A stretch of 64,000 bases of DNA from Escherichia coli (GTDB taxonomy: Bacteria; Pseudomonadota; Gammaproteobacteria; Enterobacterales; Enterobacteriaceae), in assembly GCF_016026235.1 (NCBI RefSeq), contig NZ_CP065613.1. The stretch is one strand, 5' to 3'. How positions within the stretch are numbered: position 1 is the stretch's first letter; every line of letters starts with the position of its first letter. This document shows, piece by piece, positions 58,171 to 58,622 of this stretch. A program made the translations under genes and the position numbers. The notes under the pieces are model-generated. The model ran no database searches and was not told where the DNA came from. It worked only from the letters and a program-made list of their open reading frames with translations.

Positions 58171-58335
58171 ATAGACCTCCTGATGAACTTTGGTGGTGTG
58201 GTAGGTGGGAGACCCATTTTGACCTGTTTCGGCCTACTTCAATTCGGCAATAGTCCCGCAGGCCTCGCCGCTTTACGTGCGACATATTCCCGTCCATGAA
58301 CCCTTCACCACACCCCAAAGTTCACTTTGGTTATT

Positions 58336-58350
58336 GCGCTTTGTCAGCGC
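58336..58350 (-). promoter_or_regulatory. Candidate nutL boxB hairpin (GCGCU-GACAA-AGCGC on the minus transcript)
   Basis: 5-bp stem with GACAA pentaloop upstream of N-like gene; same loop and CUACG flank as the nutR candidate. Confidence 0.5.
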
Positions 58351-58421
58351 CGTAGATTCATATTCGAATCGTTGTATATTCACCGCCCTGGTGAGTAGTG
58401 CGTCCTGCTGATGGCTTAAAG

Positions 58422-58484
58422 ATAACCTAGGTTATAGCGGTGGTCAATAACTTAATTTATGGATTCTGATAAATAAGTTATAAG
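58422..58484. promoter_or_regulatory. Candidate oL operators (ATAACnnnnGTTAT-type)
   Basis: ATAACCTAGGTTAT palindrome 58422-58435 plus related half-sites; same motif family as oR. Confidence 0.5.
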
Positions 58485-58622
58485 TGATGGATAATAAAGG
58501 TATTTTATTTTTGTAAATGTTGCGGATTGGTCGGTATTGGAAGGGGGGCGCTGTATTGCTGGCGTGTTGGTTCGTGGTTTACCGCATTTGCGGCTGTTAA
58601 ATATGGGGGACGATCGCGAGGC

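Follow-up and report, generated by a model that had tools for sequence, protein, structure and literature searches.

We analysed a stretch of 64,000 nucleotides of Escherichia coli DNA (NCBI RefSeq assembly GCF_016026235.1, contig NZ_CP065613.1), referred to below as the window, and within it the control sequences upstream of a phage antiterminator gene, N: a nutL site with its boxB hairpin, the leftward promoter pL and the oL operators. Between 54.8 and 64 kb, the minus strand of the window carries exo, bet and gam-like open reading frames (ORFs), an Nmad5-family gene and the 127-amino-acid ORF of N (57787-58170). To the right of N, the minus strand carries a cI-like gene, and the plus strand carries genes resembling cro and cII. 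The N ORF starts with an ATG at 58170, is preceded by the Shine-Dalgarno sequence AGGAGG (58176..58181, minus strand) and encodes an arginine-rich motif at the N-terminus, FKGNSRSRRRERLKAKALANG. The first-pass annotation had called this gene N-like, and the call held: the protein matches the Pfam family N_peptide (PF25694, E 9.8e-16), is 100% identical to the N of Stx2-converting phage 86 and of several Stx1a phages, and shares 99.2% identity with the N of phage 933W. The best match among complete E. coli genomes over 57700-61300 is O39:NM F8704-2, with 99.3% identity. Because of the N_peptide match, the identity with the N of phages 86 and 933W and the match to O39:NM F8704-2, the locus is identified, from its sequence, as the early control region of a lambdoid, Stx-phage-like prophage. 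The region upstream of N is very probably the pL/oL-nutL-N leader of this prophage, made of two modules.

The boxB hairpins of nutL and nutR

The hairpin GCGCU-GACAA-AGCGC (GCGCUGACAAAGCGC, 58336..58350, minus strand) occupies +63 to +77 of the predicted pL transcript. As the exact 15-mer GCGCTGACAAAGCGC, it occurs a single time in the window, 165 nt upstream of the N ATG, where the arithmetic chance expectation is about 1e-4 in 128 kb of two-stranded sequence. A stem of 5 bp closes its GACAA loop, and the energy predicted for the hairpin is -7.1 kcal/mol. All 15 of its bases are those of the P22 boxB RNA in PDB 1A4T, the solved complex of the P22 N peptide with boxB RNA (PMC11480772). For comparison with annotated sites we took nutL, nutR and tM from the 933W RefSeq record; the window from 58336 to 58402 is one base apart from the annotated nutL (CGCAcUACUCA versus CGCAuUACUCA in 933W). 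The hairpin that had been noticed on the leftward transcript ahead of the N-like gene is thus where it was said to be, and its reading as a nutL-like boxB agrees with both the 933W nutL and the P22 RNA.

The relatives bear on this reading in two ways. Among close relatives the hairpin is invariant. An IMG/VR search with the N alignment gave 80 loci, all with an N at least 98% identical, and 75 of them have a recognisable leader; this search yielded zero new divergent leaders. The boxB is exact in 75/75 of these leaders, which comprise 28 distinct sequences, and the variation among them is confined to hairpin loops and to the apical part of the leader. Among more distant relatives, the hairpin stays at the same place in all of 11 annotated phages, whose N proteins are 36-99% identical, and in lambda, and its sequence changes together with the arginine-rich motif of N. 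GCGCU-GACAA-AGCGC pairs with the motif GN(S/A)(R/K)(S/T)RR(R/H)ER in the window, 933W, the P22-like ST104 and SH2026Stx1; (A/C/U)GGCU-GAAA-AGCC(U/G/A) pairs with G(S/T)AA(G/S)RRR in S107, MII_001, MG40, PhiR63_2 and Stx1 phage; 75/02 Stx, with GCAA, and Oslo, with the variant GUCAA, each show changes of their own in the arginine-rich motif. The motif type of N therefore covaries with the boxB type, as is expected of an N that acts at a nut site.

The covariation extends to the base pairs. When 13 non-redundant trimmed leaders were folded with RNAalifold, the boxB was recovered. Across these leaders 93.7% of the consensus pairs are paired, versus 33-46% with the partners slid, double-sided changes occur in 13 of the 22 pairs, and no measure was reached by any of 500 shuffles. 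Within the boxB stem, 3/5 pairs show double changes, which fall between N subfamilies. Conservation in relatives, on which the first-pass annotation had made its reading depend, is therefore found both as the exact 15-mer in the 75 loci and as covariation of the stem.

Two boxB variants among the relatives have a pentaloop closed by a C-C mismatch: GCUC-C-GUCAA-C-GAGC in the leader of Salmonella phage Oslo, and ACCGC-C-GACAA-C-GCGGU in the nutR of SH2026Stx1 (5240-5260). The Oslo N motif differs from that of the window at two positions (GTSRA versus GNSRS). Searches of PDB sequences with N or with its arginine-rich motif gave no match, and the P22 peptide entry was found via the literature.

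The rightward side carries a second copy. The putative nutR (61128..61173, plus strand) consists of a boxA-like CGCUAUUUUCA (61128-61138), a spacer dyad GGGCAUUCGUCC (61143-61154) and the boxB UCGCU-GACAA-AGCGA (61159-61173). This second boxB, UCGCUGACAAAGCGA in RNA and TCGCTGACAAAGCGA in DNA, lies 39 nt past the cro stop and is the sole other close match in the window. It differs from the left copy at two bases, on both sides of the closing pair, so that the stem is intact. We rebuilt 84 nt of the H-19B nutR by reversing the oligonucleotides antisense to 'nutR boxA', 'nutR spacer' and 'nutR boxB' (PMC3526286 supplement), and the window from 61117 to 61200 matches it at 81/84 bases; the site also corresponds to the nutR annotated in 933W. 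N antitermination works at the H-19B nutR both in vivo and in vitro, and N with NusA/G protects the spacer and boxB of that site (PMC3526286). The recurrence of the boxB loop on the rightward side, which the first-pass annotation had noted, is thereby placed inside a near-copy of a studied nutR, and the alignment that it had proposed for both nut candidates brings each next to a known site. A compensatory change in an alternative helix around the nutR boxB (GGGC...GCCC in the window versus GGAC...GUCC in H-19B) was considered and found unsupported, as the mismatched A/C combination is common: the scan counts in IMG/VR were A/T 80, A/C 34, G/C 6 and G/T 0.

Promoter, operators and immunity type

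Upstream of the leader we find pL, with the -35 TTGACC (58447-58442), a 17-bp spacer and the -10 TATCTT (58424-58419), on the minus strand (58419..58447). No other sequence on the minus strand of 58100-61350 is a good sigma-70 match. The sequence AUCAGCAGGACGC begins seven bases past the -10, and because it agrees with lambda over the first 13 nt of the leader there, the transcript start is placed, by analogy with that homologous leader, at the A at 58412. The lambda pL start itself we take to be at lambda coordinate 35582.

Two 14-bp operators overlap this promoter. oL1 (ATAACCTAGGTTAT, 58422..58435) is a perfect palindrome over the -10 and the spacer and has the top matrix score in the window. 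oL2 (ATAACTTAATTTAT, 58447..58460) lies 25 bp from oL1 and abuts or overlaps the -35. Three more sites lie between cI and cro (60797..60859), oR3 ATAACTACGGTTAT (60797-60810), oR2 ATAATAAAGGTTAT (60821-60834) and oR1 ATAACTTGGGTTAT (60846-60859), spaced 24 and 25 bp. The pattern ATAAC-N4-GTTAT has exactly three matches in 64 kb versus 0.07 expected, all at oL or oR, and allowing up to one mismatch adds two more sites, beside the exact ones. A weight matrix built solely from the sites of phages PA28 and SH2026Stx1 ranks the five oL/oR sites 1-5 in the 64-kb window, with scores of 15-20 bits. Palindromic oL operators had been proposed upstream of the hairpin, with the same operator family on the rightward side. 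Both proposals stand, the former refined to two good sites and no longer series.

A third oL operator was looked for and rejected, since no further 14-bp site scores above 5 bits: the 13-bp ATAAATAAGTTAT (58469-58481) and the oR2-like ATAATAAAGGTATT (58491-58504), weak operator-like remnants at 58469..58504 with 1.2 and 4.6 bits, are relics at best. The latter lies 44 bp beyond oL2 and is nearly identical to oR2. In SH2026Stx1, both this site and oR2 have C for T at position 5, which amounts to two haplotypes only. The likeness may be a coincidence or may mark a relic operator. The two-site oL layout is also present in PA28, SH2026Stx1 and the O39 E. coli genome. Beyond the remnants, about 120 bp of non-coding sequence (58505-58622) with no evident function separates the operators from a tM-like terminator. 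The O39 genome also has this stretch, in place of which SH2026Stx1 and 933W have unrelated sequence.

Could the hairpin instead terminate or attenuate transcription, or be a palindrome by chance, and could the ATAAC...GTTAT repeats be the noise of an AT-rich promoter? Short hairpins and AT-rich near-palindromes are indeed common, and at up to three mismatches the window has no excess of the boxB pattern (5 found versus 2.4 expected). The hairpin has no following U-run, however, and its exact recurrence in all 75 relatives, its covarying stem, the second boxB at the equivalent place after cro, the three exact operators confined to oL and oR and the top five ranks given by a matrix from other phages all speak against chance, so we regard this explanation as extremely improbable.

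The cI repressor has 235 amino acids from an ATG at 60784 (60077..60784, minus strand) and contains HTH_3 and S24 autocleavage domains by Pfam. Its N-terminal domain aligns gap-free to residues 4-65 of the 434 repressor (E 3e-8), which is the closest solved relative. The recognition helix reads SQPAIQKM versus TQQSIEQL in 434, which fits a 14-bp operator with outer bases unlike those of 434. The pR promoter, read by eye as TTGCTA (60834-60839), 17 bp and TATCCT (60857-60862), has 8/12 consensus bases, which is below the scan threshold, and mirrors pL in having oR1 over its -10. The repressor, with its Cro/C1-type HTH and S24 domains, and the predicted 14-bp operators, two of them at pL and the other three in the cI-cro interval, have the layout of a 434-like switch, in which several partly palindromic operators overlap pL and pR/pRM. 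As in 434, the operators are 14 bp long and are conserved at their outer bases but variable at the centre; the 434 operator is presumably ACAA-N6-TTGT, compared with ATAA-N6-TTAT here. They differ in the second base (C in 434 and T here) and in an extra fifth conserved base, C, and the cro gene here is of the YdaS/P22-Cro type. PA28 has a cI N-terminal domain 80% identical to this one and ATAAC...GTTAT sites with other centres in the same three-plus-two layout. This immunity module is common to SH2026Stx1, the PA28-like phages (80% repressor identity) and about 10 of the 75 IMG/VR loci with this N. The literature that we searched held no paper with these operator sequences. The immunity type looks experimentally uncharacterised, yet its kind is known and it is ordinary within that kind.

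Whereas the operator sites, their overlap with the promoters and the family of the repressor can be read directly, the binding of the repressor and its cooperativity are predictions. The repressor and N probably recognise the oL/oR and nut sites, respectively.

The cI (pRM) operon ends in a terminator, CCCGGC-UUCCGC-GCCGGG followed by UUUUCUUU (58623..58648, minus strand), that is homologous to the 933W tM. It separates the immunity transcript from pL, and the consensus scan did not list it. Between cI and this terminator, at the position of lambda rexAB, three small genes lie on the minus strand (58667-60039): a DUF3024 protein (59698-60039), a 177-amino-acid protein without a confident family (58975-59508) and a 44-amino-acid ORF (58667-58801). 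They are probably accessory genes expressed in the lysogen. At the other end, directly downstream of N, the Nmad5 (nucleotide modification associated domain 5) gene (57102-57725, minus strand, E 4e-71) would be the first gene met by an N-modified polymerase.

The N leader stem and the module joint

Between boxB and N, the leader is predicted to form a long stem-loop (58183..58325, minus strand). Its 5' arm (58325-58302) begins just past boxB and its 3' arm (58205-58183) abuts the Shine-Dalgarno sequence. The helix has 22 bp in minimum free energy folds, and the whole leader has z = -4.2. The stem is also predicted in 11 relatives and in lambda, and among the 13 leaders aligned above compensatory changes are present at 10 of its 17 consensus pairs. 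The apical part, in contrast with the arms, is swapped wholesale as a cassette, with leader variants of 208, 245 and 341 nt. The stem is homologous to the structured N leader of lambda. According to a passage in PMC5725501 (citing Wilson 1997 and 2002), the lambda leader is highly structured, N and the Nus factors at nutL repress N translation, and RNase III modulates this repression. By analogy, the leader may be processed here by RNase III, and N may regulate its own translation through nutL.

The leader and the promoter-operator region have different relatives. For most Stx phages, 98-99% homology extends over N and nutL and ends at about 58414. SH2026Stx1 shows the reverse, sharing the operators and the immunity region (94.8%) and having a P22-like nutL and N. 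The mosaic joint is thus located at about 58412-58414, at the pL transcript start AUCAGCAGGACGC. Across the 75 IMG/VR loci, at least five promoter-operator sets, unrelated to one another, precede the N/nutL module and meet it at the transcript start: the 933W type, the lambda type with lambda's own oL/pL, two others, and the type of the window (about 10 loci).

A comparison with known systems places each module. With H-19B and 933W, the window shares the boxB sequences, the spacer dyads and a degenerate boxA, with single-base differences only (C for T at leader +15, A for G at +193 and three in nutR), whereas the upstream promoter and operators belong to another immunity type. P22 N (gp24) has the same C-terminal RNA-polymerase-binding end, LPxVALYAAGYRKSKQxTAR, and both arginine-rich motifs contain GN..RR.ER, but the overall identity is 42%, and in the P22-type nutL of ST104 and SH2026Stx1 a canonical boxA, GCTCTTTAAC, precedes boxB by 8 nt and the two extra leader hairpins described below are missing. 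Lambda has the same transcript start, AUCAGCAGGACGCAC, the same order of first hairpin, boxB and long stem to the N ribosome-binding site, and the same 24-25 bp spacing of operators that overlap pL; it differs in its boxA CGCUCUUAA, its GAAGA boxB loop, its 17-bp operators, its three oL sites and its N arginine-rich motif. An Rfam scan of 57700-61400 returned zero families at E <= 1.

The boxA question and the two-module reading

The first-pass annotation found no clear boxA next to nutL, and a search for YGCTCTTTA at up to one mismatch likewise had no match in nutL or nutR. In the P22-like and Stx1-phage-like relatives, a canonical boxA, (C/G)GCTCTTTAA, lies 8-19 nt before boxB. In the group of the window, 933W, Oslo and S107, this interval holds a hairpin GAUUC-loop-GAAUC instead. 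In the window it reads GAUUC-GAAUAU-GAAUC (58355..58370, minus strand), a spacer dyad of the H-19B type by its predicted fold, with arms that are invariant and a loop that varies among relatives. Further upstream, a 5' leader hairpin UCACC-AGGGC-GGUGA (58380..58394, minus strand) is predicted; relatives have UCACC-AGGRC-GGUGA, and lambda has CACC-AUGAA-GGUG at the same place. nutL and nutR are near-identical to those of H-19B/933W and have the predicted spacer hairpins of this nut type, of which the absence of a boxA is a known trait and not a gap in the search. Membership in the subtype stands.

An alternative is that N acts in the canonical lambda manner and that a degenerate CGCACUACU (58402-58394) is a weak boxA that recruits NusB/NusE. 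The 933W nutL feature begins in this region, with the boxA-like CGCACUACUCA (58392..58402, minus strand), and the boxA-like CGCUAUUUU of nutR has 7/9 consensus bases, better than nutL, and is CGCUCUUUU in some relatives. The nutL candidate, however, matches CGCUCUUUA at 5/9 only, lies 40 nt upstream of boxB, away from the interval in which the relatives have their true boxA, and aligns, as the start of the 933W nutL (CGCAYTACTCA), to lambda leader +11 to +21 and not to the lambda boxA. In addition, the boxA region of the H-19B nutR gained no protection through N or Rho in RNase H footprinting reactions that contained N, NusA and NusG (PMC3526286). A weak boxA of this kind is, on balance, improbable.

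We therefore return to the reading of the region as two modules, which would work as follows. Module 1 (58419-58460) consists of the leftward early promoter and the two 14-bp ATAAC-N4-GTTAT operators. In a lysogen, dimers of the 434-like cI on oL1, oL2 and the three oR sites would keep pL and pR off, and the operator spacing of 24-25 bp, equal to that of lambda, makes cooperative binding probable. RecA-stimulated self-cleavage of the S24 domain would lift the repression. Module 2, from the transcript start at about 58412 onwards, is the H-19B/933W-type nutL and the N leader. The leader RNA would fold into two small hairpins and then boxB, and the arginine-rich N-terminus of N would bind the GACAA loop, as P22 N does. 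Together with NusA, N would then render RNA polymerase resistant to terminators for the leftward operon and, likewise at nutR, for the rightward operon. In the long stem downstream, the stretch that follows boxB is predicted to pair with the one next to the N ribosome-binding site, a place for possible RNase III processing and N autoregulation.

Several points weigh against this reading, or limit how far it can be taken. The arginine-rich motif of N equals the P22 peptide at only 6 of 19 residues in a manual alignment. As oL has only two good operators, octamer looping between oL and oR as in lambda is uncertain. As nutL is without a canonical boxA, a lambda-style complex dependent on NusB/NusE cannot be assumed. 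The N of H-19B reportedly needs NusA and not NusB, S10 or boxA, and the spacer dyads are said to be able to form interfering alternative structures; both statements are attributed to work by Neely and Friedman from 2000. The assignment of function to this exact sequence is computational. Finally, an IS110-family insertion element, possibly placed within the replication module, may have left the prophage defective, with its sites no longer used for lytic growth.

The last point leads to a second alternative, in which the sites are intact but functionally retired, and a defective prophage keeps repressor-operator immunity only. An IS110-family transposase gene of 398 amino acids (DEDD_Tnp_IS110 and Transposase_20 domains, 62063-63259, minus strand) abuts the 3' end of a 115-amino-acid HTH_36 ORF resembling a replication initiator (61721-62068, plus strand), to the right of cII. 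We aligned the sequence on the flanks of the element with O from the nearest E. coli genome; the two replication modules are unrelated. In contrast, N, nutL, pL, both oL operators, cI, cro, cII and nutR have stayed intact, with 94-100% identity to their counterparts in inducible Stx phages. Retirement of the sites is therefore considered unlikely, and it would bear on their current use, not on the identity of the elements.

A further idea is that the two extra hairpins of the H-19B-type nutL, in place of boxA, provide a distinct RNA route to an N-NusA complex without NusB/NusE, and that the two-oL immunity type with its distal oR2-like relic has a repression and looping geometry other than that of lambda. 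If true, the hairpins would be a different RNA solution for the assembly of the N complex, and the two-oL type a different geometry of repression. We give this idea little credence as a novelty: its first half is largely anticipated by the published H-19B work, and its second half draws on two haplotypes.

The nut and operator elements described here are already known, annotated and experimentally studied in relatives such as 933W and H-19B, and they imply no new biology. The added details, namely an oL with two operators in a 434-like immunity type, a junction of modules at +1 and a leader stem that covaries, are ordinary lambdoid mosaicism. Within that mosaicism, this prophage joins the H-19B/933W N-nut module to the less common 434-like immunity module. 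For annotation, the positions of pL, oL1, oL2, nutL, the N leader, nutR and oR1-3 are now fixed for this prophage. In phages of the Stx type, induction and toxin expression are governed by N antitermination and by the stability of the repressor, and the immunity type and the nut type are therefore useful typing characters.
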